From: a virus
Reading direction: 5' to 3' (one strand)
Virus record (IMG/VR): IMGVR_UViG_3300036773_000146
Span: 1 to 64,000 of that record
Length of the DNA: 64,000 nucleotides
Below the pieces are notes generated by a model. That model had not been told where the DNA came from. It ran no database searches and saw only the letters and a list, made by a program, of their open reading frames with translations. Shown piece by piece: positions 10,735-63,920 of this stretch. Position numbers and translations under genes: made by a program. Numbering within the stretch: the first letter of the stretch is position 1; each line of letters starts with the position of its first letter.

Positions 10735-11093
10735 GGATTCCTCCTGTGCGGGAACGGTGAGCATAGAGCGGCCCCGCTGCACGGGGGACGCAGCGGGGCC
10801 GCATCCGGTGCCCTGATCGGGGGTTCACGGCACCGGTATTCCGATGGTCAGTGCCGGTGCGGCGCCAGCAGGTGGTTGACCTGCTCGATCGCCTGCGGCA
10901 TACCCGGTGCGGCGAAGAGGACCAGGGTGTTGTGCCCGGTGTCCACGTTCCACTGGTGGCGGCCCACCTTGTGGACGTGCAGCCTCGGTTGTCCGTCTGC
11001 TCTCGGTGCGGGTGCGGTCATGTCCCTCAACTCCCAGGTGTGTGCGAGGGGGTGCTTCTGCTTGTTGGGTGTCGGTGGTGGCTGTGATCACAG

Positions 11094-11681
11094 CTACTCG
11101 GTGTCGAGCTTGCGCAGGCGCTCGCGCAGCTTCAGCTCCTTCCGCATCCGCTTGATCAGAGGCTGGGCGCGCAGCCACTGATCGGGGGTCTCCCGGTCAT
11201 AGGCGTCGAAGACCTCGTCGGGCGCGTTCATCAGGTACCGGGAGGCGTAGCTGAGGTGGAGCTTCTGTGCGGAGCGCTCCAGCAGCGCGAGGGTGTTGGT
11301 CAGGTGCGTGGTGTGCATCGCGCGGATCTCGTGCGCGGTGCCGTCCTTGGACACCCACCACTTCCGCTGGCCGAGCAGGTCGAGAGGGGTGACGCCGAGC
11401 GGCGGCTGCTCGTCCGGGTATGCGGTCCAGACATGCACCGCATGGCGCGCGTTCATCTCGCTGCGCTCGGCGTCGGTGTAGGGGCGGCCCGGCAGCGCGA
11501 CAGAGAGGTAGACGTCCGGGTCACCCTCCTGGGCCTCGGTACGCAGCGGGACCGCCTTGCGCTCGACGGACCAGCCATCCACAATCACGCCCGCGACGGC
11601 ACGGGGAGTGCCCAGGCCGGGTGCCAGCTCTTTGAGTGTGGCCTCGATGCTGTCGATCAGCTCATCGCGGGGATCCTGCAT
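11094..11681 (-). CDS. Hypothetical protein
   Basis: ATG preceded by CCGCACTGGAGG (11689-11700) and a promoter at 11721-11748. Confidence 0.7.
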   Translation of the reverse strand: MQDPRDELIDSIEATLKELAPGLGTPRAVAGVIVDGWSVERKAVPLRTEAQEGDPDVYLSVALPGRPYTDAERSEMNARHAVHVWTAYPDEQPPLGVTPLDLLGQRKWWVSKDGTAHEIRAMHTTHLTNTLALLERSAQKLHLSYASRYLMNAPDEVFDAYDRETPDQWLRAQPLIKRMRKELKLRERLRKLDTE

Positions 11682-11720
11682 GATACGACCTCCAGTGCGG
11701 TCTCTGTGTGTACTCAATCG

Positions 11721-11748
11721 ACAATACCACTTCGGGTAGAAAAGACAA
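11721..11748 (-). promoter_or_regulatory. Palindrome-containing sigma70-type promoter (variant)
   Basis: TTGTCT-N16-TATTGT with a CTACCCGAAGTGGTAT core. Confidence 0.55.
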
Positions 11749-11809
11749 GGCCCCCGAGACGTGAGTCCCGGGAGCCTTGGTTCTGGCCACCCCACCAGAT
11801 GGATCTAGC

Positions 11810-12139
11810 TCAGTCCTCGTCGAGGTCCGGCTCGGGGTCCGAGGACGGCTCGGCGGTGCTGCCGAGGTCCTTGCGCAGCCGCGCGATGTCCTCGACGTCG
11901 AGCAGGCCGTGTTCGTAGCCCAGGCCCACGGCGTCGGCGCGGTTCTGTGCGCCGAGGCGCTGCATGACGAGCTTGACGTTCATCTTCGCCGCGTCCATCG
12001 TGACGGGCTTGCCGGTGAGGTGCTCGGCGATCTGCTGGTTGGTCAGGCCGATCGCCATCAGGCGCAGTGTCTCCAGCTGGCGTGGGGTCAGGGGGTTGAC
12101 CTCGGTGATCGTCGGCGGGGTTTCGGTCGGTTCGGTCAT
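11810..12139 (-). CDS. LuxR/NarL-family helix-turn-helix regulator (stand-alone HTH)
   Basis: LTPRQLETLRLMAIGLTNQQIAEHL...KLVMQRLGAQNRADAV matches the LuxR C-terminal signature. Confidence 0.9.
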   Translation of the reverse strand: MTEPTETPPTITEVNPLTPRQLETLRLMAIGLTNQQIAEHLTGKPVTMDAAKMNVKLVMQRLGAQNRADAVGLGYEHGLLDVEDIARLRKDLGSTAEPSSDPEPDLDED

Positions 12140-12199
12140 GACGGCCTCGTTTCGTCGGCAGGCTGCGGGGTGCGCCTGAGAAGGAAGATCTTGTCACCA

Positions 12200-12228
12200 A
12201 TACTACCCCATCGGGCAGTACCCATCCA
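12200..12228 (-). promoter_or_regulatory. Palindrome-containing promoter/operator upstream of the LuxR-type gene
   Basis: TACTACCCCATCGGGCAGTA; -10 TAGTAT with a weak -35 TGGATG. Confidence 0.55.
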
Positions 12229-12461: not shown

Positions 12462-13286
12462 TCATTCGGCGGTCGGCTCCTTGACGTGGTCGATGTAGTT
12501 GCCCAGCGTGGCGTGCTGGCGCTTGAGCGTGTCCAGCAGCATGGTCAGCTGGTGCTCGTGTCGCTGGATCTTGATCCGGGTCACGGACAGGTCGGAGATC
12601 GCCTCGGCGGCCTCCGCCTGGTCGGGGAAGTGGCTCAGTCCGTAGACGTTGTGCTCGTTGTTCCGCCGCATCACGGTCTTGATCAACTCGATGGCCCACT
12701 TCTCTTCGGGCCTGAGCGCCTGTGCCTCGTACTTCCTGGTGTGCAGGGTCCGGCGCAGGTCGTCGTTTTCCTGGCGCATGCGCGCGGCATCTTCTCGGGC
12801 CCAGCGGTACGCGCGCTCGCGCTCGTGCGTGCCCCAGAAGGACTTGGCCGCGATCGTGCGGTAGGCCGGGCCCAGATCGTCGACCTTCACCTTGGGCGCG
12901 TCGCGCAGCATGGTCATCGAGCGGGTCCGGCGGCCGGACGGCGGAGCCATAATGCCCCAGCGCTCGGGGATCTCCAGGCCCTCGACCAGAGCCGGGTCGG
13001 CGACGACCAGCCACCACTGCTGGCAGTACCGCAGCCACGGGTCCGGCTTGGTCAGGTCCTCCAGCTCGTGCACGAGGTCGGCGCGGGTCACCTTGATCTC
13101 GTGGCCGACCAGCTGGTAGCCGGACGAGCTGCCGAGGCCCATGGCGATCAGGTCGGCGCGCCGGTTGCTGCTCGGCGCCTGGATCTCCGAGAGCAGGTTC
13201 CACGAAGGTTGCCGGTTCGGCGGGTTGTAGTGCGCCTCCAGCAGCTTGAGCACGCTGCGCGCGTCGAGCTTCTTCGGTTCGGTCAT
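12462..13286 (-). CDS. MmcB-like PD-(D/E)xK nuclease-fold protein
   Basis: RRADLIAM...GHEIKVTRADL...K...YCQQWWLV motif; start motif at 13291-13302. Confidence 0.7.
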   Translation of the reverse strand: MTEPKKLDARSVLKLLEAHYNPPNRQPSWNLLSEIQAPSSNRRADLIAMGLGSSSGYQLVGHEIKVTRADLVHELEDLTKPDPWLRYCQQWWLVVADPALVEGLEIPERWGIMAPPSGRRTRSMTMLRDAPKVKVDDLGPAYRTIAAKSFWGTHERERAYRWAREDAARMRQENDDLRRTLHTRKYEAQALRPEEKWAIELIKTVMRRNNEHNVYGLSHFPDQAEAAEAISDLSVTRIKIQRHEHQLTMLLDTLKRQHATLGNYIDHVKEPTAE

Positions 13287-13371
13287 CCGTCCTCCAGTGC
13301 GGGCTGAGAAAGTCGTGGGGTGGATACGACACCGGGCCCTATGACCGGCATAGGGCCCGGATACAACCAGG

Positions 13372-15458
13372 TCAGGCGCAGCACTCCGCGACCCAGGCGA
13401 AATCCGGCGGCCGAGGCTGCCTGATCAGGGTGCCGGGCCCAAAGGTCGTGCCGCACACGCAGACCCCGGGGTACTGCGCGGGAAACCAGCGCGGATCGGT
13501 GGCTGTCAGCTTCGCGCGCAGGCTCCCGGTGTCGGCGGCCGCCTGCTCCTCGACGGTCCTGTTGTTGCCCCGGCAGTGGGAGCACATGCTCGCAGGCATG
13601 TCGTAGTGCTCGCAGTAGTCGCTGGGGTCGACCATCAGTCCTCGTCCTCGTCGAACAGCTGGTCAAAGCAGTCAGGATGCGTACCGCTGATCAGCATCTC
13701 CCGCTCGTCGGCGGTGAGGTCCGGCAGTGCGTCCTGGATGTGTGCGCCTGCTCGCCAGAGGTCGACGCCGTTGGCCGGGGCCGTGATCTCGCTCGTGCGC
13801 AGGCACACGACACACGGCTTGGTGGTGATGGTGGTCATCTCGATCGCCATCAGCCCTCGTCCTCGATCAGCTCGAAGTGGCGGCGCTGCAAGCCGAAGGT
13901 CGGGTGATCATCGTCATCGAGCTGGAGCAGGAAGTGGGTCACGAACGCGTTTTCCATGCCGGGCACCTCGACGACGACACCGCTTACGCGCTTGTCGGTC
14001 CAGTACAAGACACCGGGGTGCGTGCGCACCTTCGCGCCGACCGGCACGTCCGCGCCGGTTTCGGCCGGAGTCCCGGGGATAACGCCGATCATCGGGTGCT
14101 GGGAGATCACCTCGTCGCCCAGGCGCTGGCCGAGGTTGCCCTCGGCGGTGGACCAGATCGCCGTCCACTCGGTGTCGACGAGTTCGCTGTCGGGGTAACC
14201 CGGCGGGATCCGGGCCCAGATCGTGTGCCCGTCGCCGTGCTCCTCGCGGCGGATCGTGCCGATGGGGTCCATTACGCCTCCTGAAGCTCGGTGGTGGGTC
14301 GCAGGGTGGACCAAGTGCCCACGGCCTGCGGAGAGAGCTGCTGAGTGTGCCAGTGGCTGCGCTGGGTCGGCTCGGCCCAGACCACGGTCCACGGGAGGAC
14401 CCGGTTGCGCTCGGGGGTGTGCATGGCGATCGTGCCGTCGAGCGCGATACGGGCCTCGCGGTTCTGCATGACGTGCCTCCAGTGCGGCGGGTGGATCAGG
14501 AGTTGAGCTGAATGCGGTGCGGAATTTGGCTGAGCGCGTAGAACTGCTCCCAGTCCATCAGGCCCTCGGGCACAGGACCCTCGATGGCCCACTTGCGCAG
14601 ACCATGACCGTCGTTGTTCACGCCGTTCGGACCCCAGTAGTCCCAGTCGCCCGTGCGCGTGAGCGCGAGAACCAGTGCGTCCCCTCGAAAGATCTTGGCC
14701 TCGACGGCGTCGCACTGGCCGAAGTACTCCTCGGTGCAGTCCCGGCCGCCCTCGGCGGTGAGCTGCCAGCGGTAGCCCCCGCGCAACGGGGGAAGGAAGC
14801 TCCACAGCTCAGCCATCAGACCACCCCCGCCAAGGTGACGGCCTCGTCGAGGGTGGCCACGACGTTTCCGCAGTGGTAGCCCTCCTCGACCTCCCAGCCG
14901 GTGTCAACGCGCACGAGGGCGATGGCCAGGTCGCCGGTCTCGCACCAGAGCCGGACCGCGTCGGCGTCGACCGGGTCGATGTGCCCGGTCCGGTCCCACT
15001 CGCCCTGGCACAGCTGCCAGGAATAGCCCTCGGGCAGCTCGGGAAGCTCGTACATCAGAGACTCCGCTCGAAGGCCTGGTCCCAGGCGGCCGCCCAGGCG
15101 GGCTGGGGGCCACGCGAGGGCGTGACGCCGACGTAAGCGGCCAGGGACTCCAGCGCGGCCAGGGACGCCCGGGAGTCGGCTTCACTGTGTGCCTGGGCGA
15201 TCTCGCCGAGCAGGGTGTTCGCATTGACGGGAATCGCACCGGACGAGCCAAAGCTGTACAGCGCGCTGTGCTGTCCTTCGTGCCACACCATCGCAGTGAC
15301 GCGGGCGTGCGTGTCGCTCATCAAACCCATCAGCTCCAGCTCTTCTTGCCGTGCTTGCGACGGCGGGAGTACTTGCTCTTGTCGCGGTGGCGGGCCGCTG
15401 CTGACGAGCGGCGCAGCTCCTGAACCTGACGGACCTTCTCGGCCTGACGCTCGGGCAT
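13372..15458 (-). other. Operon of 8 small hypothetical genes (13372-13635, 13635-13850, 13850-14272, 14272-14469, 14496-14816, 14816-15055, 15055-15330, 15330-15458)
   Basis: Mostly coupled TGATG/TAATG stop-start overlaps; start motifs at 14476 and 15466. Confidence 0.7.
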
Positions 15459-15486
15459 TTCGACACCTCCAGTGCGGTATTCCTCG

Positions 15487-15516
15487 ATACTACCCGATCG
15501 AGTAGGCTCCTGGCAA
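15487..15516 (-). promoter_or_regulatory. Palindrome-containing sigma70-type promoter
   Basis: TTGCCA-N18-TAGTAT; core CTACCCGATCGAGTAG on the plus strand. Confidence 0.75.
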
Positions 15517-15810: not shown

Positions 15811-15812
15811 CG

Positions 15813-15885: not shown

Positions 15886-16007
15886 CTGATGGCCCCGGGT
15901 TGCCTAGGACCCGAGACCACCACTGTCCTCGCGGATACAGCATCTCGCGACCCGCCAAGAGTGCACCGGCACGAGGGCCGGGAGAGCGTGGCTGACTGTC
16001 GAGACCG

Positions 16008-16079: not shown

Positions 16080-16099
16080 GTTGCGACGATGAGCTTTTG

Positions 16100-18658: not shown

Positions 18659-18879
18659 GGGTTGCTCCTCGTGCAGTGTCGGCAGACGAGTCGCCAGCCC
18701 TCGGGACCGTTCAGCACGACCACAGAGGGGAAGCCGCAGTTGGCGCAGGGCAGCGCCAGGCGTTTCCGCGCAAACTGCGGCGCGCGGACCTTGCGGTCGG
18801 CGACGATGTCAGGGTGGACCACGATTCCTCCGGTGCGGGTTGTGGTACCCGGAAGGGTACGGTACTCGGATGGGTAGGG

Positions 18880-20042: not shown

Positions 20043-20076
20043 GAGGCCTCCTGTGCGGCGGGTGGATAGTGGCCCG

Positions 20077-20399: not shown

Positions 20400-22803
20400 T
20401 TATTGCTGGAAGACGGCCTGCACGAAGGCAATGACCGCGTCCGCGCCGTGCTTCAGCCCGGAGAGGATTCCTCCCACCGATCCCGCCGCGTGGATGGGAT
20501 TGCTGAGAATCAGGTAGGTGACCAGGGCGACCGCCACCCAGAACAAGATGGTCTTGAACTTCACGATCAACCTCCGGTGGCGTTGTCGTGGGCGATGGCC
20601 AGCAGGTTGGCCAGCTCGTCCTCGGCCCCGTGGTGGGTCAGCCACGACTCGGACCGGTCGACACGGGAGTACACGGTCCAGCTCCGGTCTTCGTCGTTCC
20701 AGTCGACCTCGATCAGTCGTTGCATCGCGTCCTCTCAGGATGTCTTGCGCTGGCTCTTCCAACTGGCCAGCCGCAGGGCGCCGAGCATGGCGCAGGCGCC
20801 CACGGAGTCGTTCTCCCACGTGACCGCCGTGCGGCCGTGGTTGGCGCGGTCGGTGACTTCCCAGCCGGTGCGGATCCGGCGGGCACTCACCCTCTTCCCG
20901 GTGACCAGCCGGTAGTCGAACTCCTCGGTCGGAGTGCCCCAGTACTGGCATGCCCCGACGCAGTAAGCGTGGTTGCCCGGCGTCCGGGTCTCGGCGCCGT
21001 CGGCCTGGTCCACGAACGGCGTGCCGTCCGGGTGGTGGTGGTAGCCGAGCTGGCAGTCGCAGAGGACCGGCAGCTCCTGGTCGACGCAGGCGTGGGTGCG
21101 GACACGGATCATGGCGTTCTCCTCAGTCGGAGTAACCCCCAGTCAACTGTCAGTAGACCACGTCACCCGATCGTGTGGGTCGGTCCCGACTCACCACGTC
21201 TCCCGGCGGATCTCGGCCTTGCCCAGGCTGCGCACGCGGCGGGCGTAGCCGTTCTTGATGCGCTTGGTCTCGCCGCGCTGGAACGAGACGACGCGGCGAG
21301 CCCGGCGGCTGAAGGCGTCGACCTCGTCGGCGGTGGCGGCGGGGATCGGGTGACCCGGACTCATCGTGGTCCTCCTCCGGTGCGGTGGTCTGCTCTCAAC
21401 CCTACCCGTTCGAGTAGGCCTTGGCAACCAGTTCCGTGTAGGTCTTCGCGGCCCGGTCGGCGCTGGGACCGTCGTAACGCACGATCGCAAACCGATCGGT
21501 CACCAGGTAGTGCCCGGTGGAGGGCCAGTAGTCGATGAAGATCTCGCCACGATAGTGCCGGGCCACCACGATCTCGTACCGGCTCACGTACTGCGTCAGG
21601 GCCAGACCGCTCAGCTCGTCGGCGTTGTGCGGGTCCAGGTTCATCAGTCCTCCAGGAGGGGCTCGTAGCACCCGGCGCAGGTGCGCGCCCGGCCGTTGTT
21701 GTCGCGGGCGTCGTCGCCGTTGAAGATCGGCTGCGGGATCGTGTCCGAGTCCCGCCAGCGCGGGTCTTCGCCCGCGACGTCGAGGTCACGAATCTCGGTG
21801 CCGTAGAGCTTGATCTCGCTCTCCACGATCGCCGGGAGTGGCGGCAGGGTCGACACGGAGCCGATCAGGCCCAGGGTGCAGCGAGGACACCACTCGTCGG
21901 CCAGGTAGGCAAAGCCCACGACGTCAGTCGCGTGACCGTGGGCGTTGATCTCGTAGTACGTGCCGTTCCAGGCCATGACGTCGCTCCTCAGCGTCGGGGG
22001 ATGTCGTAGTAGGCGTCCAGCGCGGCACGAGAGTTGGTGCCCTGGTAGACCTCGTGGCCGTGGTCCACCACGACGTACTCGGCGGTGCCCACCCGGTAGT
22101 TGATGTAGCGGTGGTAGGCCTGGCTGAACTCGCCGAGAAGGTGTTCCAGCACCTTCTCGGCGACGAAGCCTTCCAGCTCATTCGCGGTGATCTCGTTCCG
22201 GACCATGCTCAGTTCTCCTCGGGGTCGTAGTTGTCCATCAGGTCCGCCCCCGTGGTCAGGGACAGCTCGCTCTCCAGCAGGTCGGCCAGGGTGATTCGCA
22301 GCCGCCACAGGCCCTCGTGGCCCGGGTGCTCATCGGCGGCCCAGGTGCCGACCCGGACGCTCGTGCCCTCGTCGTTCTCGATCTCGACGAACCGGCTGTT
22401 CTTGTCGCTGGGCGGTCCGTCGAAGATGATGTTGATCGCGGTCATGAGCGTGATCCTTTCAGGCAGCAAAGCGAAGACGGCCGGTCATCGGCCGTCCTCA
22501 GATGGGTCAGCACCACTCGATCTGGCGCCCGTGCTCGACGGCCCAGCTGGCCACGGCCAGCAAGTTCACCATGCGGCCGCGCAGGAAGGGGCTCATCTCG
22601 TAGTTCAGGGCCAGCTGCTCCTCCACACCGCGCAGGACCATCCCGGCATCCACGAAGCCCGCGCTGTCCACGTCCTCGACGACGAAGCCCACCAGGCCGA
22701 GCAGCTCACCCCAGGTGGCGCCCGTGGTGTTGAACTGCGGAACCGCCGTGAAGAACTCGGCGGTGTCGGTGTCGAAGTACTCGGGGCGGATTTCCAAGCT
22801 CAT
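20400..22803 (-). other. Run of small hypothetical genes (incl. 20735-21112, 21191-21364, 21402-21644, 21644-21976, 21988-22206, 22209-22445, 22507-22803)
   Basis: Coupled ORFs; start motifs at 21374 and 22813. Confidence 0.6.
21399..21427 (-). promoter_or_regulatory. Palindrome-containing promoter
   Basis: TTGCCA-N17-TAGGGT, overlapping the 3' end of the upstream gene. Confidence 0.7.
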
Positions 22804-22841
22804 GATCTTTGACCTCCGGTGCGGCCTGATGTGATGCCTCG

Positions 22842-23998: not shown

Positions 23999-24045
23999 GT
24001 CGGCCTCCTGTGCGGTCTCTCGCAAGACTACCCGAAAGGGGTGGG

Positions 24046-24393: not shown

Positions 24394-24534
24394 GTCACGG
24401 ACCTCCTGTGCGGTCTCACGGCTTGTTTCGGGAGGCCGCAGGGCCGGAGAATCCGACCTCCGGCCCTGCGCCTCGACCCCCGAGGGCCACAGCGCGCGAA
24501 CACTGCGGTTCCGCGTCCTCGGGTGAGGGTGGTC

Positions 24535-26446: not shown

Positions 26447-26479
26447 CGAGACCTCCTGTGCGGTCGTGGTGATATATCC

Positions 26480-29546: not shown

Positions 29547-29576
29547 GACTACCTCCGGTGCGGTGTCGGTGTACAA

Positions 29577-32097: not shown

Positions 32098-32131
32098 GTC
32101 GGACCTCCGGTGCGGTCTGTTGAACTGACAA

Positions 32132-33905: not shown

Positions 33906-33935
33906 GCGGACCTCCGGTGCGGCCTGAACGAACAA

Positions 33936-38500: not shown

Positions 38501-38537
38501 GAGGTGCCTCCAGTGCGGCAGTGGGGCGGATGGTCGG

Positions 38538-39137: not shown

Positions 39138-39166
39138 GGCTGCCTCCTGTGCGGCTGATGTGGTAA

Positions 39167-40123: not shown

Positions 40124-40162
40124 GGGGGTGCTCCCTCCAGTGCGGGGTCTGTACGGTGGTTG

Positions 40163-42234: not shown

Positions 42235-43407
42235 AGTTCCTCGATCGTGACGCGCACGTCGTGGCCCTCGCAGCGGCCCAGCCAGCTGGTCCGGGTCAGT
42301 GTGTCGTCGCCGTTCCGCTCGTTGTCGAGCATCTCGATCACGAACGTGTTCTGGTCCACCAGGCCCTCGGTCGGATGGATCTCCACCGCCGAGATGGTGA
42401 CCAGCTTGATGGTCTCGGGGTTCACGGCGGGCTCAGCCATGGTCTTCCTCCAGGGCGGCAGTGATGGCTTTAACGGTGTCGCAGGGCCACGCGTCGCCGG
42501 AGTGTTCGCAGACGGGCAGGGCAGATTCGTGCCAGTGGTCCTCGATCTCGATGGGCTTGTGGAGGTCGAGCACGGCACGGAGCGCGACGAACGCTTTCGG
42601 GGCTGCCCTCCGCTTGAACCCGGTCGCGGGCTCATCCGCGTACAAGTTGCCGTAGGTGTCGAGCAGTGCGCGCGGGTCAGCCACGGTCTTCCTCCCACAG
42701 CTCCAGGTACTCGGTGTGCATGTTGGGGTCGACGAGCACGACGCGGTCACCAATGATGTCGTTGCCCAGGACCCTGAACAGGCCGCCGGTGCCATGCGAG
42801 TCGATCAGCGCCTGGACGACCGAGACCTGCACGCGCGGGCAGATGATCACCCGGCGCTGCTCGTCGAGCTGCTTGGTCATCCGGTCCCAGGTGGCCATCA
42901 GCTCCTCGTAGTTCAGGCTCACACCTGCTCCTCGTCGAACTCGATGAAGACGATCACGTGCTCGTCGGACGGCTTGATCTTGATCAGGTCGGACGCGGGC
43001 TCGTCGCCGTGCTTGACCTTGCCCAGCTCCACCAGCCGGTGGGTGGCGTAGGTGATGGCCAGCATCAGGTCGGTCCAGTCCGCGCCATCACCCCAGAAGC
43101 CGCCGGGCGTGGGCACATGCCACTCCACGCGCTGGCGGGTGAAGACCTTCTTCTCGATGTCGGCGGCCATCAGTCCTTCACCAACTCGACCGGCCCCAGG
43201 GTGCGCTTGGCCAGCTTGCGGTAGTTCGGGATGCCCTCGAAGGTCACCGTCACGGCACGGGCGTCGGTCTCGCTCTGGCACTGGCAGAAGACCGGCGGCT
43301 CCTCACCGTCGTCGAGCACGAAGTCCCAGATCTCCTGCGGGTCGGGGTCGGCCACGAAGTACTCGTTGCTCATGATCACCTCTCCGGTGCGGGGTGTGGT
43401 TATACGA

Positions 43408-49538: not shown

Positions 49539-49572
49539 GATCTTGACCTCCGGTGCGGTCTGGAACTGATAA

Positions 49573-49605: not shown

Positions 49606-50588
49606 GGGGTCAGGCCTGGTCGGCGAACTTCTGCGCAGCAACCTTGGCGTCGTGCATCGTGCGCGCCGAGTCGTAGGAGATCAGGTTGCGGGTCGGCAGG
49701 GTCCAGATGCGCAGGTCCCACAGGTCGTTCGCGATCTTGTCGATCGCGAAGCTGTGCGTGTCAGTGCGGGCGTAGTAGGTACCGGACCAGGCCTGGCGGG
49801 TATATGTGAGCTTCACGATCATCCTCCGGTGCGGACGGGGGCGACCGGATGGCCGCCCCAGTTGGATCAGTCGCAGAGCCTAGAGACGAGTTCCAGCCGA
49901 GCCGGGTCCGCGCCCAGCACCCGGCCGTCGCGGTTCCAGCGGACCGGAATTTCGTCCGGCTGGACGCTAATCTCGCTCCACTTGAGCGCAGGGTCCAGCT
50001 GGACGACTACGCCCACCTCATCGAGATCGGTGTGCCGGACCGTCATGCCCTCGGCAAACTCGATCATTTCGACCTCTCCTCGGTAGCGGGGTGTAGCTCG
50101 ACGTGGGCGTCCGAGGTCTTGATCCCCGGCGGCTGGCCTGGTTACCAGCCGCCCGTCTCTCCCTGTCAGTTCTCGCGGATGTCGCTCAGGTCATCCCAGG
50201 CGAGCCACCCTGCCTCGCCGTCTTCCCACCGGGCCAGCACCACAAACCGGCGCTCTTCCAGGATCTCGACGATCTGGTCGTTGTCGAACGTGGCAATCTT
50301 GGTCATGATCGGTTTCCTTCCCGGTCGGACCGGGGGCGACCGGGTGGCCGCCCCCGCTGGGGCTCAGGCGCAGTTCCACCACAGGCGGTCGCCCAGCTCG
50401 GTGAGCAGGTCCACCAGCACCGTCCGGCGGTCCGACTGATCCAGGCCGATCAACTCGCCGTAGGCGATCTTCTGCTCGTACCCCGCGATGTGCTCGCGGA
50501 GTTCGGCGATGTTGGCCGCGTTGGCGGCGAGCGGGTGGCGGGTGGTGTTCGACATCTTGACCTCCGGTGCGATCCTCAACCTGACAAA

Positions 50589-50621: not shown

Positions 50622-51848
50622 GGGTCCGCTACGGCCGTATGTAAGGCACCTCGGCTTCAGCGTCGAACCAGCGCGGGGAGTGGCCGCCGTCGGCGTGCTG
50701 CACGCCGACAATCACCTACCTCGCACCGTTCGCCGGGTTGAATCCTCCGGATATGGCATCCGTGCGGACGGTGATCTGCACCAGGCCGCTCTCGTCGCGG
50801 TACTCGTCGCCCGCGCGCAAGTCCTGCGCCAGCATGGTCAGCTCTCCTTCACGGTGTCGAAGGCCCGCTGGGCATCGAAGGCCAGGACGAGGCCGGAGAG
50901 CACCTGGAGACGCTCGATCTTGCGCCACAGGCCCTCCAGGGTCTTCTGGGCGTGCTCGATGCTCCTGTCGATGTTCTGGGGCTGGAAACCGGCCACCTGG
51001 ACGTTCGCCCGGCGCCACACGGTGCCCTCTGAGGGGTAGTGGCGCGTCGTGGTGCCGTCGCGGAAGGCCAGCACCAGCTCCAGGGAGCGGGTGGCGGTGT
51101 CGGGCGCGATGCCGATCACCAGGGCCCAGCCGTTGGTCCCGGAGGCAAACCAGACGTTGTCGCCCAGCTTCAGCTCGGCGGTAGGAACCATGCTGGCGTC
51201 GCTCATGGCGGTCAAACCTCCAGGCCGGTGATGTGCTCGGCCAACCGGACCTGGGCGGCCTTGACGCCGTCATCGAAGGCCTCGTTGTACTGCGCGCTGT
51301 AACGCTGCTGCGGGGCGATGTCGTAAACCGCGCTCACGGCCTGCTTGTACTCGGCCAGCTCGGCCAACACGGCACGCAGATCGTGGGTGGTAAGCCAGAC
51401 GCCGGGGGTGGCGCGAGAGACGACGCCCTGGTGGTTGGGCTCCGGCCACTCAGCCAGGAACTGCTCGATGTTCTCGGCGGCCGCCTGGCCGGGAGAGTGC
51501 GACATGATCTTGTCCTTCCAGGACGGGGGCCGGGCCCCGTGTGGAGCCCGGCGGGTGAGTCAGCCTTCGATCATCTTCAGGGCGGCGGCCTCGCACTTGG
51601 CGCACACCTTGCGCTGGCGGAGAAGCTTGGCGTAGGCCAGCGCCTCGGCCGGGGTCTCGAAGGTCGGGCCCTTGGCGAAGCGGGTCAGGCCCCGGGAGAG
51701 CGCCGAGCAGGCGGTCATCGCGTAGTCCAGGCCGTCGGCCGAGTCCTGCGAGGTGATGTCGAGGCCCTCGATGTGGTTGCTGGTCCGGTTGTAGCGGATG
51801 GTGAACGACATCGGGGCCTCCAGTGCGGCTCGTCTTGCTGACAGATTC

Positions 51849-53692: not shown

Positions 53693-53728
53693 GGTGTCCT
53701 CCGGTGCGGGGTGATCCCTGACTGACAA

Positions 53729-54519: not shown

Positions 54520-54767
54520 GCGGTCATCCTCCAGTGCGGATGTGATCGGTGGTCAGGCGCAGAGCGGGCAGAGGTACAGCTCAGCCTGATAGCGGAGCGA
54601 CTCCGCGTGCCACACGGTCCGGCAGGAGTCACAGGTATCCGGGGTGACGTCCAGGCACTCGATGCTGATGACGCGACCGTGGTCGGTGGTGATCTGGTCG
54701 ATCCGGATGGCTGCGGCCGTGTTGCTCACGAGAAACCTCCAGTGCGGCTCGGTTGGTGACACCACTG

Positions 54768-55449: not shown

Positions 55450-55484
55450 GAATGCCTCCGGTGCGGCTCGTGCTGACGTCGCCG

Positions 55485-56109: not shown

Positions 56110-56525
56110 CAGTCCTCCTGTGCGTAGATCTTCAACTGGTCTTCCAGAGCGTGCGCGACGCTGCGGCCGCTACCGATGATCAGCGCCTTGGCCTCGTCGT
56201 AGGGATCACGCGGCACCCAGAAGCGCACGCGGGTGCGCTTGGTCTTCGGTCGGAACGGCGGGCGCCGGGCCGGATCGCGATGGGGATCGGGCAGAGCCAG
56301 CACGGCCGCCCGGAACAGGGCCATGCGGCACACGGCGGTGAAGTCCACGCACTCGGCCTGGGCGATGGCCTGGGCCCGCTCGACGACGGCCAAGGCAATC
56401 TCCATGTCCGCCTCGAACGTAGGCAGCGACGGGTCGAGACCGTGGGCGGCGAGGATCTGCCGGAAGCTGGCCTGGATCCGCGCGATCTCCGCGTACCCGG
56501 CCGCGTAGCCCTCGACCCGACTCAC
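56109..56525 (-). CDS. Possible ribbon-helix-helix DNA-binding protein
   Basis: C-terminal RVRFWVP...Y..AK....GRSVAHAL...L..Y pattern. Confidence 0.45.
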   Translation of the reverse strand: MSRVEGYAAGYAEIARIQASFRQILAAHGLDPSLPTFEADMEIALAVVERAQAIAQAECVDFTAVCRMALFRAAVLALPDPHRDPARRPPFRPKTKRTRVRFWVPRDPYDEAKALIIGSGRSVAHALEDQLKIYAQED

Positions 56526-58044: not shown

Positions 58045-60050
58045 GCAAAGGCAAGAACTCAGTTTTCGGCATCGCCACCGGCGTCGCTCTCTCCCAGGGC
58101 CTGCCCGGCTTCATGAAGACGTTCCGCCGGTGGTCCTTCCGGTTCCGGCGCGTGCTCACCCCGGTGTGGACGGCCTTCCTCGTCTACCTAGTCGCCGTCG
58201 TCTGGCGCTGGCAGATCCCGCAGTGGTGGCCGGTGGTCCTGGTGCTGCCGCTGCTCGGCGTGGGCCTGGCCTGGGGTGGCCCGCACCTGAGCGAGCGCTG
58301 GTCCCGGGTGGTGATGAAGCTGGTCCCCGACGGGCTCGACAAGGGCCAGGACGGCATCCTGGACCGGCTCACCGAGCGGCTGTACCTGGCCATCCTGCTG
58401 AGCTACACCGGCGCCTACCTGGCCGTGCGGATCGTAGGCGGCGCGAGCTACGTGTCCGGCCTGCTCTGGCAAATCGGGCTGGGTGCCTTCGGGGTGACCT
58501 ACTGGTACCACCGCCGGGTGCGCAGCTTGGGCAAGGCGAACAAGTACGTGAAGAAGTGGGCGCGCTTCGCCGACCGCGAGACCTGCCCGCCGACGCTGAT
58601 CTCGCTGGTCGGCTCGAAGGTCGTCAAGCACGACGTCTCGCCCAACGGCAAGGCGATCACCCTCACGATCAAGCTGGCCGAGGGCGTCACCGCCGACCGC
58701 ATCGGTCACATGGCCGAGTCGCTGGACTCCTATTTCAACCTGCGCAAGGGCGCCACGACCATCACCGAGTACAAGGACCAGTCCCGGTATGCGGTGGCGA
58801 AGTTCGTGCCGAAGGACCCGTGGGAGGACAAGATCGAGCACCCGCTGCCCGGTCCGGACAAGATCAGTCTGGCGAGCAGCGGCGGCCGATTCTCGATGGG
58901 CATCTATGCGAACAGCGACGAGCTGATCTACCAGCTTCAGCACACGCTGCTGTGCGGCACCAACGGCTCGGGCAAGTCCGGCTGGCTGCACTCGCTGATC
59001 GCCTGGCTGGTCCCGTGCCGGGATGTGGTCCTGCTGGGCATCGACATGGCCCAGGGGGCGACCCTGAACGTCTGGCGCAAGACGTTCGCCCTGCCGATCG
59101 CCACGGACGTGGACAGCGCTCTGATCATCCTGGAGAAGGTCTTCGCGGTGATCAAATATCGCGAGGGCGTGCTGAGCAAGGCGAGCGAGGAGGACGACGA
59201 CGCGGCCGACTCGTTCGTGCCGTCGAAGAAGACCCCGTGGATCGTGCTGATCATCGAGGAGTTCCCGGACCTACTGGCCGAGGCCAAGAACACCGAGCGG
59301 TACGACTCCAAGGGCAACGTGATCGGGAACATGTACGACCTGCTCGTGCTGCTGCTCGGCCGGATCGCGAAGAAGGCCCGTAAGTGCGGTATCCGGCTGG
59401 TCTTCGCGACCCAGAACGGGACCAAGGTCGACACGGGCTCGAAGGAGATGCAGGGCCAGCTGAAGGCCACCGTGGGCCTGCGTCTGGACCAGAACCAGTC
59501 GAAGAACCTGTGGGGCGGCGGCAGCTTCGCTGGGCCCGGCTGGAACTCCACCGATCTGGGCCTGGGCGAGTTCCTGCTCCGCGACGAGGACCACTCGGTT
59601 CCGGACAAGGCCAAGGGGTACTGGGTCGACAACGCGGCCCGCCGCAAGATGGTCTCCGACAACGTGGGCCCGAGCGGTACCCGCGAGGTCTACCTGGAGC
59701 CGGACGCATGGTCTCTGCTGATGAGCGAGACCATGGGCCTGGACGTGGAGGCCGACGTTCCCGAGGCCGAGCGGACCGAGGCCGACGATCGCCGGGACCG
59801 CGTCGTGCGATACCTGGAGGACCACTGGACCGAGTACCGCAACGGCGTGAAGGCCCAGACCATCAGTGACGACCTGGAGATCCCGACCTCCACGCTCTAC
59901 CGGGATCTGGACGTACTCCGGAGTGACGACCCGGGCCCGTGCCGGGTCCAGGTGCTGAAGAAGTGGTACTACCCGGCGGGGAAGGCTCCCACGGAGTCCG
60001 GCCCGGCCCCGGTCATGGCGTCCATCCAGGGCGAGCAGACCGGCGGCTGA
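58041..60050 (+). CDS. FtsK/SpoIIIE-family DNA translocase, actinomycete TraB-like
   Basis: N-terminal TM helices, Walker A GTNGSGKS, Walker B IIEE, RKCGI.L..ATQ and a C-terminal wHTH (ISDDLEIPTSTLYRDLDVL). Confidence 0.85.
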   Translation: MSKGKNSVFGIATGVALSQGLPGFMKTFRRWSFRFRRVLTPVWTAFLVYLVAVVWRWQIPQWWPVVLVLPLLGVGLAWGGPHLSERWSRVVMKLVPDGLDKGQDGILDRLTERLYLAILLSYTGAYLAVRIVGGASYVSGLLWQIGLGAFGVTYWYHRRVRSLGKANKYVKKWARFADRETCPPTLISLVGSKVVKHDVSPNGKAITLTIKLAEGVTADRIGHMAESLDSYFNLRKGATTITEYKDQSRYAVAKFVPKDPWEDKIEHPLPGPDKISLASSGGRFSMGIYANSDELIYQLQHTLLCGTNGSGKSGWLHSLIAWLVPCRDVVLLGIDMAQGATLNVWRKTFALPIATDVDSALIILEKVFAVIKYREGVLSKASEEDDDAADSFVPSKKTPWIVLIIEEFPDLLAEAKNTERYDSKGNVIGNMYDLLVLLLGRIAKKARKCGIRLVFATQNGTKVDTGSKEMQGQLKATVGLRLDQNQSKNLWGGGSFAGPGWNSTDLGLGEFLLRDEDHSVPDKAKGYWVDNAARRKMVSDNVGPSGTREVYLEPDAWSLLMSETMGLDVEADVPEAERTEADDRRDRVVRYLEDHWTEYRNGVKAQTISDDLEIPTSTLYRDLDVLRSDDPGPCRVQVLKKWYYPAGKAPTESGPAPVMASIQGEQTGG

Positions 60051-60920: not shown

Positions 60921-60959
60921 GACGGATCTCCTCCAGGTAGGTCTTCTCAGTATGGGCCT

Positions 60960-61664
60960 TCAGGCCAGTACCGAGGCCAGTCCCACCCACCAGGGACCAC
61001 CCTGGGCCCAGACCGTGAGGGCACCCAGGACTCCGACGAGACCACCCAGGCCCAGGGTCACCGCGCCCTCGCCGATGTTGATCCAGGCCCACCGCGAGTG
61101 GTCCTTCAGGCGCTTGTTCTCGTGGTGGGCTCCGACGCGGAAACGGGCCCGGCGCGGTACCAGCCAGACCGGTCCCCAGCGCTTCTCGGCGCGCTTCCAG
61201 AAGGGCGCCCAGAACGGGATCCCGCCGAGGGTGATGGCGTCGCCCCACAGGTGCGCGAAGTGCCCCACCACGACCGCCAGGGCGGCCCACAGAGCCCACG
61301 CGGACGCCGGGGTGGCCAGGACGCCCAGGAAGGTCGTGAGGCCCATCAGGACGCCCCACAAGGCCGTGTGCGTCAGGGTCCGGTGGCCCGGGTACATGCC
61401 GCCCCGGTCCTTCGGCGTCTTGGTTGCCTCGTAGACGATGATGGAGAGCTTGTTGATCAGCCAGGCCAGGATCCAGGTGACCGGCCCCAGCAGCTTCGAG
61501 GCCTTGGCGCCCGGCATGTCGAGGTCCGGCAGGAGCGCGCCGATCCCGGCCACCGCGACGAAGGCCACCGTCACGAGGATGTTGTTACCCGACGGGTGCG
61601 GGATGACAGGGGCGACGGCGAGCGCGGCCGCGTACCCGGTGAGTTGATGTCCGGTGTGTTCGAT
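60960..61664 (-). CDS. YdjM-like membrane-bound metal-dependent hydrolase
   Basis: H..TG...LLPDLD...HRTLTH...H...D..T..G motifs; apparent ATC start (see findings). Confidence 0.8.
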   Translation of the reverse strand: MEHTGHQLTGYAAALAVAPVIPHPSGNNILVTVAFVAVAGIGALLPDLDMPGAKASKLLGPVTWILAWLINKLSIIVYEATKTPKDRGGMYPGHRTLTHTALWGVLMGLTTFLGVLATPASAWALWAALAVVVGHFAHLWGDAITLGGIPFWAPFWKRAEKRWGPVWLVPRRARFRVGAHHENKRLKDHSRWAWINIGEGAVTLGLGGLVGVLGALTVWAQGGPWWVGLASVLA

Positions 61665-61667
61665 GGT

Positions 61668-63566
61668 TCAGCCCTCCCACGTGCACAAGCCCGTGTGCGG
61701 ATGACCGGTCCCCCGGCAGTCCCAGCAGAGACCGCCGGTGGACTCGTCCCAGACGTCGCCGCCGGTGCCGTGGCACCTGTCGCAGCAAGGAGGGATGGAC
61801 CGCAGCAACTGCATGGCCTGCTCGACGACCTGGCCGCCGAGGAAACCGGCGACGAGCACGAGAGCCTCCAAGAAGGGCACGGTGATCATCAGCTCTCCTG
61901 GTCCAGGCAGAACAGCTGCCAGTCGCGGTCCGGGTGCTCATCCTCGAAGCGCAGCGCGGCGTCGGTGATGGCACCGATCAGCTTCCCGAAGAGCTTCTCC
62001 GGGAAGCCCTCGGGCGTGGTCACGGTGATGTGCGGGGTGCCCTGCGGGCCCTTGCCGTATTTCACTGGAACGTCCACCACCCGTCGAAGCACGGGGGGAC
62101 CGCTGGGAAGTTCTCCAGCATCGGGCGCAGGATCTCCAGGTGGGTCTGCACGATCTCCGGCACCTCCTCGCCCCAGTACCCGGTGCCGTCCCAGCGGGCC
62201 ACGGCGGCACCGCCGTACCGGCCGTCGTCCATCTGCTCCATCGCGTGCAGGCCGTCGCGGGGGATCTCGTCCACGAGGGCCGACAGCGACCCGGCCACGG
62301 ACACCGGGGCGTTCTTGCGGCCCCGGAACCAGAGGGCCTGCACCGTGCACCGGTAGAAGTCCGGCCGGTGCACGGTGGTGTGCGTGGTGATGTGCAGCGA
62401 GCCGAGGTCCACAGCATAGGGTCGGTGGCTGAACACGAACTTGTCCTCGCGGATCATGACTCGTCCCCCACGGCCTCGGCGGCCACCGGCGGCTTCCGGC
62501 ATGCCCACTTCTCCCGCACGATGTCCTGGATGCGCGCGAGCATCGTCGTCGGCAGGGCCGGGCCCGCGTGCCGGAAGTCCTCCAGCGCCGTGTCGATCCG
62601 GTCGAGCCGGTTGCTGGCATCGTGGTACAGGCTGGCCGCGTTCAGGTGGACGCGCAGGTGCGCCATCACGAAACTGTGGCTCGTGCCGGGCCGCATTCCC
62701 ATCTCCGTGATGATCTCGGCCAGTCGCGCCTCCGCCACGGCCAGACGCTCGGCATCCACATCCGGGGCCGGGCGGTGCTGGCCGAAAAGCGGGACCATCC
62801 CCTCGGGCAGCTCGGCCGTCTCGATCCCGACGCCGTCACGGTCATCCTCGGCTCGCTCCCAGGCCTCCCACCAGTCGTTGACGTGGTCGTACACGTAGAC
62901 GTAGTCGGTCGACGGCGCGAAGAGCACGCGGTCCTCGGTCATGATCCGCTCCTGAGGTCGGTTTCGGCGCGCTCGTACTCGGTGCCATCCGGAGTGGTGC
63001 AATCCACGACGGCATACATCCGCTCGCCGTCCTCGGTCGCGATCCAGGTGTCCACGGCCTGGCCGTCGACCTCCTGGCCGTAGGAGTTCCGGAAGATCAC
63101 GGTGTCCTTGTAGAGCGTGAACCGCTGCGCTTGCTCGCTCATCAGCGCTCCTCGGGAAGGCCGTGTTCCGGCTCGACATCGGCGAGCCGGTAGCCGGTAC
63201 GGATCGGACGGAACCGGGCGATCTTGATCGTGCCCGAGTGGGCGGCCAGGACACCGCCGGGCTCGTCGTACCAGGTGGTCACCAGGGCGACGTTGTACTG
63301 CGGCACGTCGTCGGGGCGCAGGCCGTCCACCCGGACGTAGCGGGTCGCGCGATTGCGCGGGTCGTTGTCGATCCACAGCTGGCCGGGTTCGGGCCGGAAG
63401 TAGACCATCAGTGCACCGCCCAGCTCGTGCCGTGCACGACGAGGTTCCGCAGGGAGCGGGTGACGCCGTCAAGGGTGTAGTGGCCGGTACGGTTGTCCGT
63501 GCGGTGCCTGCCCATGGTCGGGGGCGTGGCCCACAACCGGGTGGCGAGACCGAGCAGCTTGGTCAT
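61668..63566 (-). other. Operon of small hypothetical genes (61668-61889, 62062-62457, 62454-62942, 62939-63142, 63142-63408, 63408-63566)
   Basis: Coupled ORFs. Confidence 0.6.
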
Positions 63567-63621
63567 GAGAGTCCTTCGGGTAGAGGAAGGCCCCCGGCCG
63601 GTGAGGGCCGGGGGTCGTGGA

Positions 63622-63882
63622 TCAGGCGCGAGCCCGGGAGAGGGCGCGCCGCTCGTCTTCGGTGAAGCCGCCGAAGACACCGTCGTCGAGACCGTTGTCG
63701 AGTGCGAACGCCAGGCATTCCTCGCGCACCGGGCAGCGCGCGCAGACGGCCTTGGCCTCGGCGATCTGCCGCTCGGCCGGACCGACCTCGGAGATCGGGA
63801 AGAACAGCTCGCCGTCCTCCCACTGGCAGGCGGCGTCCTGCATCCAGCGCACCTGGCGCATGTCGAACTCGAACGTGAACAC
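63622..63882 (-). CDS. whiB: WhiB-family Fe-S transcription factor
   Basis: W...AAC...D.ELFFP...AKAVCARCPVREECL..AL....GVFGG.TE.ERR. Confidence 0.95.
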   Translation of the reverse strand: MFTFEFDMRQVRWMQDAACQWEDGELFFPISEVGPAERQIAEAKAVCARCPVREECLAFALDNGLDDGVFGGFTEDERRALSRARA

Positions 63883-63920
63883 GATGTCGCCTCCGGTGCG
63901 GCTTGAGTGCTTGCCTGTTT

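Follow-up and report, generated by a model that had tools for sequence, protein, structure and literature searches.

The DNA analyzed here, a window of 64,000 nucleotides (positions 1 to 64,000 of IMG/VR record IMGVR_UViG_3300036773_000146), comes from an uncultured actinobacterial phage of ~150 kb that is Bxz1/E3-like. Read on the minus strand, as all window copies are, the motif CCGCACHGGAGG is found in 26 exact copies versus 0.14 expected, and 100 shuffles of the window gave at most 2 copies of the 12-mer. All 26 exact coordinates listed in the first-pass annotation match CCTCCDGTGCGG on the plus strand, and the two sites that it called variants (43381 and 50561) are true one-mismatch copies ahead of start codons; two further one-mismatch copies, at 42447 and 56114, were absent from its list. 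The sites in the window (SAS, start-associated sequences; spacers to the start codon in nucleotides) are as follows.

10740..10751, minus strand, exact SAS: gene 10501-10734, ATG, spacer 5; GC-rich hairpin upstream, no palindrome promoter
11689..11700, minus strand, exact SAS: gene 11094-11681, ATG, spacer 7; both flanking pairs; degenerate palindrome promoter upstream
13291..13302, minus strand, exact SAS: gene 12462-13286, ATG, spacer 4; hairpin upstream; motif kept in the G5 orthologue, flanks differ
14476..14487, minus strand, exact SAS: gene 14272-14469, ATG, spacer 6; previous stop 8 nt away; kept in the G5 orthologue
15466..15477, minus strand, exact SAS: gene 15330-15458, ATG, spacer 7; palindrome 15490-15505
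18827..18838, minus strand, exact SAS: ORF 18655-18822, GTG, spacer 4
20047..20058, minus strand, exact SAS: gene 19662-20042, ATG, spacer 4; palindrome 20082-20097
21374..21385, minus strand, exact SAS: gene 21191-21364, ATG, spacer 9; palindrome 21402-21417
22813..22824, minus strand, exact SAS: gene 22507-22803, ATG, spacer 9; palindrome 22845-22860; kept in the G4 orthologue
24004..24015, minus strand, exact SAS: gene 23546-23998, GTG, spacer 5; half palindrome and -10 upstream
24402..24413, minus strand, exact SAS: gene 24046-24393, ATG, spacer 8; hairpin upstream; G1 and G4 orthologues operon-internal, without motif
26452..26463, minus strand, exact SAS: gene 26240-26446, ATG, spacer 5; palindrome 26483-26498
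29552..29563, minus strand, exact SAS: gene 29217-29546, ATG, spacer 5; palindrome 29584-29599; kept in the G1 orthologue
32104..32115, minus strand, exact SAS: gene 31663-32097, ATG, spacer 6; palindrome 32140-32155
33911..33922, minus strand, exact SAS: gene 33546-33905, ATG, spacer 5; palindrome 33944-33959; kept in the G1 orthologue
38507..38518, minus strand, exact SAS: gene 38018-38500, GTG, spacer 6; previous stop 19 nt away; no palindrome
39143..39154, minus strand, exact SAS: gene 38841-39137, ATG, spacer 5; palindrome 39175-39190
40134..40145, minus strand, exact SAS: gene 39311-40123, TTG, spacer 10; palindrome 40166-40181; motif and TTG kept in the G1 orthologue
42447..42458, minus strand, one mismatch (loop A to C): gene 42231-42440
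43381..43392, minus strand, one mismatch (last G to A): gene 43170-43373; palindrome 43416-43431
49547..49558, minus strand, exact SAS: gene 49290-49538, ATG, spacer 8; palindrome 49580-49595
49823..49834, minus strand, exact SAS: gene 49610-49816, GTG, spacer 6; GC-rich hairpin ends 3 nt upstream
50561..50572, minus strand, one mismatch (first C to T, G-U pair kept): gene 50364-50555; palindrome 50596-50611
51817..51828, minus strand, exact SAS: gene 51560-51811, ATG, spacer 5; palindrome 51852-51867
53698..53709, minus strand, exact SAS: gene 53129-53692 (LPD29 domain), ATG, spacer 5; palindrome 53737-53752
54528..54539, minus strand, exact SAS: gene 53767-54519, ATG, spacer 8; previous stop 13 nt away; no palindrome
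54736..54747, minus strand, exact SAS: gene 54553-54729, GTG, spacer 6; palindrome 54771-54786
55455..55466, minus strand, exact SAS: gene 55102-55449, ATG, spacer 5; palindrome 55492-55507
56114..56125, minus strand, one mismatch (first C to A): gene 55510-56109 (DUF6919)
63890..63901, minus strand, exact SAS: WhiB-like gene 63622-63882, GTG, spacer 7; palindrome 63924-63939

A scan of the whole genome and its relatives, as proposed in the first-pass annotation, found 32 exact 12-mers in the complete 149.7-kb genome (G0), 6 of them outside the window, and 38 (relative G1), 16, 12, and 4 copies in related uncultured phages; no copy was found in the more distant relatives searched or in five cultured phages of the Bxz1/E3 type. 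Thirty-one of the G0 copies are on the minus strand and one, ahead of a plus-strand gene, is on the plus strand; in G0 and its relatives, a copy is always on the strand of its gene. A start codon in the same orientation lies 4 to 10 nt downstream of 30 to 31 of the 32 G0 copies, most often at 5 nt; the copy at genome position 87804 lies within a coding sequence, with no linkage to a start. The placement just upstream of start codons that the annotation had claimed is found at 25 of the 26 exact window copies, which precede independently called starts by 4 to 10 nt, and the 26th (18827) has the GTG of a 55-codon ORF, missed by the gene caller, 4 nt away. The middle base was compared in 86 copies from four genomes: it is never G, and the other three bases are preferred in the order C > U > A. 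One-mismatch copies near starts number 12, versus 74 exact ones.

In G0, the motif is present at 28 of the 86 genes with an upstream gap of at least 30 nt, versus 1 of the 138 without such a gap; the respective numbers in G1 are 29 of 96 and 0 of 153. The structural region contains no copies, just as had been claimed for structural genes, and no late gene with an upstream gap carries one. A SigA-type promoter with a 16-bp palindrome that overlaps its -10 hexamer is repeated 20 to 30 times across the non-structural region. This palindrome is found 12 to 27 nt upstream of 16 of the 26 exact window copies, and the other copies are downstream of hairpins or in short intercistronic gaps, which agrees with the earlier description of a motif that occurs mainly after a palindromic promoter and also alone. 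Clade-wide, the palindrome promoter precedes 65 of ~102 copies, i.e., about two thirds; some of the copies that lack it are only 8 to 19 nt past a stop codon. The distance from motif to palindrome varies from 11 to 33 nt, whereas the distance from motif to start codon is fixed. Some leaders are similar beyond the motif.

Orthologues that share 38 to 66% protein identity retain all 11 fixed bases in a leader that has otherwise diverged. Many SAS genes are confined to a single genome, gain or loss of the motif tracks the promoter-proximal position of the gene, and the motif is conserved throughout the clade on unrelated genes. Judging from these sequence comparisons, selection acts on the motif itself. 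Within a single clade of ~150-kb uncultured actinophages, early, non-structural transcription units have their first cistron marked by the element.

The main structural fact, a new finding that was absent from the first-pass annotation, is that the 12-mer is the core of a predicted stem-loop, NNCC[GCACHGGA]GGN'N', that comprises 16 to 18 nt of RNA. Its stem consists of two invariant C-G pairs and one or two covarying pairs and encloses the 8-nt loop GCACHGGA; the Shine-Dalgarno (SD) GGAGG is split: its first three bases belong to the loop, and the other two to the 3' strand of the stem. This assignment follows from covariation of the flanking bases, which by themselves carry no information content. 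Of the 86 sites from four genomes, which within a genome are only partly independent of each other, 69 pair position -1 with +12 (five pair types; 41% expected) and 49 pair position -2 with +13. The covariation score is 0.319, versus 0.076 ± 0.015 in shuffles and at most 0.077 in slid controls, and the covariation persists when the genomes are taken singly, when the sites are dereplicated, and when the other pair is conditioned on. The same helix was recovered by RNAalifold. Pairing in a control set of 161 plain GGAGG starts is 36 to 40%, and 13 hold-out metagenome sites pair in 10 (-1/+12) and 8 (-2/+13) cases. The outer flanks of the sites are as dissimilar as expected by chance, which speaks against recent duplication. 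The predicted stem is short (3 to 4 bp, ~-3 kcal/mol), and its third pair is absent in 17 of the 86 sites. At the 15466 copy, the palindrome is 12 nt upstream, so that the stem would begin approximately at the predicted transcript start.

The hexamer CCGCAC had been said not to be explained by anti-SD pairing, and the real 16S 3' tail indeed contains no complement to it. The flanking bases avoid lengthening the SD/anti-SD duplex, and immediately 5' of GGAGG, G never occurs and A is the least frequent base. Extended SD/anti-SD pairing is not supported, as the 16S tail lacks complementarity to the conserved bases next to CCUCC.

SAS, with extended SAS (ESAS), are known from cluster K mycobacteriophages (Pope et al. 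2011, PMC3203893) and from Microbacterium phages of cluster EF (Jacobs-Sera et al. 2020, PMC7302621), and the function of SAS is still termed unknown in the literature of 2024 to 2025 (PMC11373665, PMC12699233). The analogy with cluster K drawn in the first-pass annotation is well founded: the two kinds of element are alike in copy number, position, and orientation, both keep to non-structural genes, and both are linked to promoters that bear operators. Like the SAS of clusters K and EF, the motif is an asymmetric repeat of 12 to 13 nt, with 10 to 38 copies per genome, that occupies the ribosome-binding site a few nucleotides before starts and includes the SD core; it occurs in a single orientation and never at structural genes, its genes belong to unrelated families and mostly follow large intergenic gaps, its conservation exceeds what anti-SD pairing accounts for, and it is often found downstream of a SigA-like promoter with an inverted repeat (ESAS; PMC11373665). 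However, its sequence is unrelated to the K or EF consensus, so that membership in SAS is by kind and not by homology. The conserved extension is here only 5' of the SD, whereas those of K and EF are extended on either side, with GGG...CCC; flank covariation demonstrates a stem here, whereas no covariation is seen at the flanks of the Anaya SAS; and the ~150-kb Bxz1/E3-like phage differs from the SAS phages, which are temperate siphoviruses of 50 to 60 kb. Enrichment of ATG at SAS genes appears weak here (23/30 in G0 versus 75% overall, and 29/31 in G1 versus 72%). The intercistronic sites, the spacing that is fixed to the start and variable to the promoter, and the RNA-type covariation argue for a role at the mRNA level, and the element is very probably a stem-loop start signal of SAS type that acts on the mRNA.

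The operator of T4 gene 43 is a short hairpin with an 8-nt loop that adjoins or overlaps the SD. The element resembles it in having such a hairpin and loop at the SD, but that operator controls one gene, whereas many genes are marked here. In CsrA/RsmE sites, too, a short hairpin overlaps the SD and exposes GGA in its loop, with CA a few bases upstream, as in the element; these sites differ in loop size and consensus, the phage encodes no CsrA homologue (PF02599, no match in a profile search of its genome), and CsrA is not known to be typical of actinobacteria. Promoters of cluster O mycobacteriophages, which reportedly carry a 17-bp palindrome between -35 and -10, resemble the companion palindrome SigA-type promoter and not the start-linked motif.

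Four loop bases outside the SD are invariant, which argues that the element is read in a sequence-specific way. That a trans-acting factor reads the element as a translational operator is the explanation that we favour, with, in our estimate, a little less than an even chance; that control by this factor is negative is less likely still and a matter of surmise. The first-pass proposal of a translational regulator or endoribonuclease stands as regards the mRNA-level role, whereas for the factor itself no homologue of T4 RegA or RegB is found in the genome: profile searches gave no match for RegA (PF01818) and none at E ≤ 1 for RegB (PF10715). The phage genome encodes no homologue of bS21, and a screen of conserved clade-specific small proteins found no RNA-binding family.

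It is rather unlikely that the element is a start module acting only in cis, in which the hairpin would keep the SD in a defined fold, partly displayed in the loop and safe from other pairings in very GC-rich short leaders, and would let host ribosomes initiate strongly on first cistrons whatever the context, without a dedicated factor. The restriction of the motif to genes on which ribosomes must be loaded anew (post-gap and not translationally coupled) fits such a module, as do the short leaders, in which the motif begins at ~+1 to +24 relative to the predicted start of the transcript, the predicted accessibility of SAS start regions, which are slightly more open than those of other genes, and an upstream context rich in C and A and poor in G and T. 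However, structure alone needs no four invariant non-SD loop bases across 100 sites in at least five genomes; 56 to 63 genes per genome manage with plain GGAGG without the hexamer, including post-gap genes of the same region; and late genes with gaps never carry the motif.

A special case of the trans-acting factor, which we consider improbable, is a sequence-specific endoribonuclease with RegB-like logic, i.e., a phage or host RNase that would cut early mRNAs at the loop or the SD and inactivate them. The confinement of the motif to early genes, the SD within the element, and the GGA in the loop are consistent with it, and there is a precedent in T4 RegB, which inactivates early mRNAs by cleavage at GGAG (PMC1702504, PMC3014915). 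However, the phage has no RegB homologue, and RegB/S1 targets a single-stranded GGA with A-rich determinants on its 3' side (PMC1702504), whereas the phage element is a hairpin with its conserved part on the 5' side.

A direct contact between the element and 16S rRNA outside the anti-SD appears highly unlikely. The hexamer would pair with the 3' strand of helix 45 or mimic its 5' strand and loop, resulting in a two-part mRNA-rRNA contact or in a decoy for a factor that binds helix 45. GUGCGG does occur once in the ~1530 nt of real actinobacterial 16S genes, in the 3' strand of helix 45, 8 nt 5' of CCUCC; the 5' strand and loop match SAS at 12 of 13 positions with one gap; and the middle-base order is that expected for pairing to a G. 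However, this match is post hoc, the two segments stand in the opposite order to that of a continuous duplex, and, going by established ribosome structure, helix 45 would need to be opened in the mature 30S subunit. Moreover, the covariation indicates that the element folds on itself differently from the helix-45 scheme, and this rRNA sequence is common to very many bacteria, whereas the motif is missing from close relatives whose hosts are presumably similar. Likewise highly unlikely is a DNA-level site (a protein-binding site past the promoter, or the boundary of a cassette or of a recombination event) or a functionless relic of duplicated promoter-leader cassettes: the same promoter type stands ahead of about two thirds of copies and some leaders share further similarity, but about a third of copies lack this promoter, some of them being just past a stop codon, the spacing is tied to the start codon and not to the promoter, the motif strand always follows the gene, and covariation between stem positions is characteristic of a single strand that folds, rather than of a duplex read by a protein.

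If the element is an operator read by a trans-acting factor, its weak hairpin would permit host ribosomes to initiate on early messages. The factor, most likely a phage protein made later, either a binder or a nuclease, would then recognize the invariant loop and the short stem, and its binding would block, or its cleavage destroy, the SD. The entire early set would thus be switched off at once, in parallel to the palindrome in the promoter DNA. Post-transcriptional control at the start regions of many early phage mRNAs is also seen in T4 (PMC3014915, PMC1702504). Present on about 30 early genes, the motif is probably a switch for early protein synthesis.

The window contains 26 exact copies of a 12-base motif, all on the plus strand as given, which on the minus strand read CCGCACHGGAGG; 96% of the genes are on the minus strand. 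The chance expectation for the window is 0.14 copies, and the maximum among 100 dinucleotide-preserving shuffles was 2. These are the copies listed in the first-pass annotation, whose two variants, at 43381 and 50561, proved to be genuine one-mismatch copies; two more of this kind were found at 42447 and 56114. We scanned the whole genome (G0, an uncultured actinophage), for which our own gene caller, based on codon usage and Shine-Dalgarno (SD) scoring, predicted 234 genes covering 93% of the sequence. Its exact copies number 32 (minus strand, 31; plus strand, 1), and 30 of them are located 4 to 10 nt upstream of a called start, as the original description of the motif had it. The lone plus-strand copy lies 7 nt ahead of a plus-strand gene for a DEAD-box helicase. 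The copy at 18827 is followed, 4 nt downstream, by the GTG of a 55-codon open reading frame overlooked by the gene caller. The sole copy with no link to a start (genome positions 87804 to 87815) is in frame within a 278-codon gene; its codons, Q-L-A-A-x-E-V, are kept both in G0 and in the related uncultured phage G1 (position 53051), so this copy is conserved as coding sequence and is not start linked.

The window makes up the initial 64 kb of the IMG/VR virus record, which is 149,735 bp long with 67% G+C, and a 127-bp terminal overlap suggests that the assembly is circular. The product of the portal gene (window positions 61 to 2268) has its closest cultured relatives, at ∼40% identity, in Rhodococcus phage E3, Gordonia phages such as Stormageddon and Pupper, and Myrna/Bxz1-type mycobacteriophages. 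Structural genes occupy ∼105 to 149 kb and 0 to 10 kb and replication genes ∼68 to 100 kb, and between 10 and 67 kb there is an extended run of small genes, many of them found in G0 only. This array contains ∼22 SigA-type promoters (window positions 12203 to 63939) in which a 16-bp palindrome occupies the spacer between the −35 and −10 elements and its final three bases open the −10 hexamer (TAGnnT), for example, at 32140 to 32155, 49580 to 49595, and 53737 to 53752; in several of them the inverted repeat is lengthened to ∼30 bp. Sixteen of the 26 exact window copies sit 12 to 27 nt downstream of such a palindrome, and the other 10 follow GC-rich hairpins, degenerate promoters, or intercistronic gaps of 8 to 19 nt, which agrees with the initial observation that the motif occurs mainly, though not only, behind palindromic promoters. 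An Rfam scan of the window returned three tRNAs and nothing else, with no family matching the motif. The early region includes the following features.

15812 to 16351, minus strand: tRNA genes Trp-CCA, Met-CAT, and Glu-CTC
32125 to 32135 and 53722 to 53730: TTGTCAG box, also in early promoters of G1 and G2
33982 to 34344: Tad3-like anti-Thoeris protein
58041 to 60050, plus (opposite) strand: FtsK/SpoIIIE-like ATPase
60960 to 61574: YdjM-like membrane protein
63622 to 63882: WhiB-like regulator, preceded by the motif

Early promoters of G0, G1, and G6 (another motif-bearing phage), and of G2 as well, a more distant relative without the motif, share the short TTGTCAG box, which is located in the initially transcribed region right after the −10 element. 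G2 has a different palindrome in the same place of its early promoters, which looks, from the sequences, like swapped operator specificity. At 51885 to 52209, a palindromic promoter abuts the ATG of a 99-codon gene found in G0 alone, 7 nt after the −10 element, making this a probable leaderless early gene.

The motif marks a class of genes. In G0, genes preceded by a gap of at least 30 nt carry it in 28 of 86 cases and genes lacking such a gap in 1 of 138; the respective numbers for G1 are 29 of 96 and 0 of 153. Late genes preceded by gaps never carry it, and the identified products of the genes that do (WhiB, the DEAD-box helicase, and LPD29, DUF2786, and DUF6011 proteins, the others having no known family) are all nonstructural, which bears out the reported absence of the motif from structural genes. 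Another 56 to 63 genes per genome use plain GGAGG without the preceding hexamer CCGCAC. Several late genes show a recurrent CCCAAT box 10 to 25 nt 5′ of the SD sequence (genome 92.6 to 144.5 kb), possibly belonging to a late promoter; the gene strand has 13 occurrences of CCCAAT and the opposite strand 2.

Genome 92648, 99373, 113813, 140196, and 144379: genes with a CCCAAT box upstream of the SD sequence

When 12 kb of the sequence was compared by megablast with the cultured-phage collection, no match was obtained, and relatives were therefore sought through the portal protein, combined with pattern scans. Besides G0, the motif is present in G1 (38 copies in 155 kb), G6 (16 in a 49-kb fragment), G4 (12 in 40 kb), and G5 (4 in 30 kb). 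Two more distant relatives, with portal proteins 55 to 58% identical, have one chance copy apiece, and in five cultured relatives matches to the motif are no more numerous than those to a reversed-pattern control. Orthologues in G0 and G1 share 38 to 66% protein identity; where both are promoter proximal, the 11 fixed bases are intact and the surrounding leader has diverged, and when a gene is operon internal in one of the two genomes but follows a promoter in the other, the motif is present only in the latter. For over half of the motif-bearing genes, the other genome has no homologue. Thus, the motif is a class signal and not a gene-linked relic. In G3, from a lineage lacking the exact 12-mer, a related motif one base shorter (five C's broken by an A and fused directly to GGAGGA) precedes the starts at 87960, 78892, 78528, and 77277, a minimum count as the contig stops within the early region; judging by its sequence, it is possibly a sister variant. 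The only strong repeat of G2 has 17 copies, each consisting of a 6-mer, 16 nt, and a 13- to 16-mer ending in GGGGTGAG; it was rejected as an analogue because it sits 10 to 25 nt 5′ of a separate SD sequence, and it is probably a phage-specific late promoter.

G2 149061, 144914, 137346, 103095, and 6102: examples of the two-part repeat, mostly before structural genes

Across 86 sites, the middle base of the motif is C in 40, T in 29, A in 17, and G in none, the base following GGAGG is G in merely 4, and the flanking positions carry essentially zero information; near starts, there are 74 exact versus 12 one-mismatch copies. Ensemble folding of these sites gives high pairing probability to the outer two C's and the final two G's of the motif, as well as to their immediate outside neighbors. 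The bases adjoining the 12-mer (−1/+12) form a standard pair in 69 of the 86 sites (GC 27, AU 23, UA 10, GU 5, and CG 4), compared with 41% after shuffling, and the next ones (−2/+13) pair in 49 of 86, compared with 29% expected; pairing of −3/+14 is at chance level. The covariation score is 0.319 versus 0.076 ± 0.015 for shuffled flanks, a value reached in none of 500 shuffles, and all slid registers score at most 0.077. The signal is seen separately in G0, in G1, and in G4 plus G5, and it persists after dereplication to 61 sites and when shuffling is done inside classes set by the other pair. Outer-flank similarity is 0.28 versus 0.29 predicted from column composition, which means that the sites did not arise by recent copying from a few prototypes. 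The same three-pair helix was recovered independently with RNAalifold, and at 161 control starts with plain GGAGG the equivalent positions pair in 36% and 40%. G6, being 88 to 97% identical to G1 over 35 kb, was dropped as a holdout in favor of metagenome contigs, in which 120 pattern matches were mostly due to chance and only five loci, 70 to 81% identical to known members over part of their length, belonged to new members of the clade; their sites pair in 10 of 13 (−1/+12; P of ∼0.01 against 0.41 by our own binomial arithmetic) and 8 of 13 (−2/+13) cases. Of the three variants near starts that affect a stem position, two change C to T and retain a G-U pair. The element is, therefore, a stem-loop, NNCC[GCACHGGA]GGN′N′, with the loop in brackets. 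The SD sequence is shared between the loop and the 3′ side of the stem, which makes the hairpin and anti-SD pairing mutually exclusive. A downstream mRNA partner for the hexamer is not conserved (3 of 86 sites).

Covariation is a signature of a folded single strand. The motif strand is always the gene strand; the spacing to the start codon is fixed at 4 to 10 nt, whereas that from the palindrome end varies from 11 to 33 nt (mode, 22 to 23); and some copies occupy intercistronic gaps with no promoter. Together with the covariation, these properties argue for a function on the transcript. Even at the shortest promoter-motif distance, the stem does not begin upstream of the predicted transcript start; its first base then coincides approximately with that position. 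We conclude that the motif is very probably an mRNA-level start signal of the start-associated sequence (SAS) kind. The first-pass annotation had proposed a site for a translational regulator or endoribonuclease; the posttranscriptional level of that proposal is supported, and no regulator or nuclease was identified among the proteins searched. Pfam searches with 20 conserved clade-specific proteins and an ESM Atlas search with two of them returned no RNA-binding family, and searches of the genome for homologues of RegB, RegA, CsrA, and bS21 were negative.

That the hairpin is read by a factor acting in trans is a tentative proposal, to which we give somewhat less than an even chance. A specific reader is the simplest account of four invariant loop bases outside the SD sequence at ∼100 sites in highly diverged genomes. 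A required phage-encoded activator is unlikely, since the genes concerned are behind SigA-type promoters and must be translated before any phage protein is made. A repressor or nuclease made later might clamp or cut the hairpin and so shut off the entire early set, in parallel to the DNA palindrome. The hairpin is weak (3 to 4 bp, ∼−3 kcal/mol for the consensus), and host ribosomes should be able to open it. A start module working in cis only is unlikely, though it is the foremost competitor, and it leaves the invariant loop bases to be explained. The opening energy of these start regions, 11.7 versus 13.0 kcal/mol for others (P = 0.04), differs too little to be used as an argument and was dropped. 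A nuclease site, a special case of the trans-acting model and counted within it, is rather improbable, as RegB targets differ in the structure and location of their determinants. Less probable still is direct rRNA contact, in which the hexamer and the SD sequence form a two-part signal directed at 16S helix 45, with early mRNAs invading or mimicking this helix to capture 30S subunits or a helix 45-binding factor. The hexamer is the exact complement of GUGCGG. The 16S genes of Nocardia, Streptomyces, and Dactylosporangium have this sequence only once each, 8 nt 5′ of CCUCC on the 3′ strand of helix 45, and the 5′ strand plus loop of this helix agrees with the motif at 12 of 13 positions if one gap is allowed; the 25-nt 16S 3′ end is found in many genomes. 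However, a continuous duplex would need the two segments in the reverse order, helix 45 would need to be opened, the motif is limited to one clade while the rRNA sequence is near universal, and the covariation describes a different, self-contained fold. If true, this would be a kind of translation initiation signal new to bacteria. A DNA-level site or relic comes last, marginally behind rRNA contact, given the strand and spacing rules.

The SAS of cluster K mycobacteriophages is 13 nt long, with 11 to 19 copies located 3 to 7 nt before starts of right-arm genes, in gaps of >50 bp, about half of them with an upstream inverted-repeat element (PMC3203893). The extended form was later interpreted as a SigA-like promoter with an inverted repeat, a combination that is found upstream here, too, and the function of SAS was still termed unknown in 2024 and 2025 (PMC11373665, PMC12699233). 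The analogy drawn at the outset, to an SAS of different sequence, holds: in copy number, start position, and nonstructural genes, this is the same kind of element as those of clusters K (PMC3203893) and EF (PMC7302621). It differs from them in its sequence, which is unrelated, in having a conserved extension only 5′ of the SD sequence, and in being carried by a very different type of phage. The stem is demonstrable here, whereas the SAS flanks of cluster K phage Anaya showed no covariation, so this test does not extend the hairpin reading to cluster K; in the K and EF motifs, the terminal GGG and CCC could pair into a stem of 3 bp. Our literature search found no description of the G0 motif.

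SAS elements have been known in mycobacteriophages since 2011 (PMC3203893). The motif described here is a third, unrelated SAS sequence class with the same plan, in which a SigA promoter bearing an operator is followed by a short leader and a hyperconserved SD-containing repeat before early genes; this pattern suggests that one regulatory design is used convergently. As its outer stem positions can vary freely, the motif provides the first covariation evidence that an SAS-type element is a folded RNA, and a vague idea of involvement in translation becomes a testable stem/loop model with a loop-reading factor. The element could serve as a compact orthogonal part for translation control in actinobacteria. 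If a dedicated factor exists, it would constitute a regulon-wide posttranscriptional switch in actinophages, comparable to RegA and RegB of T4.
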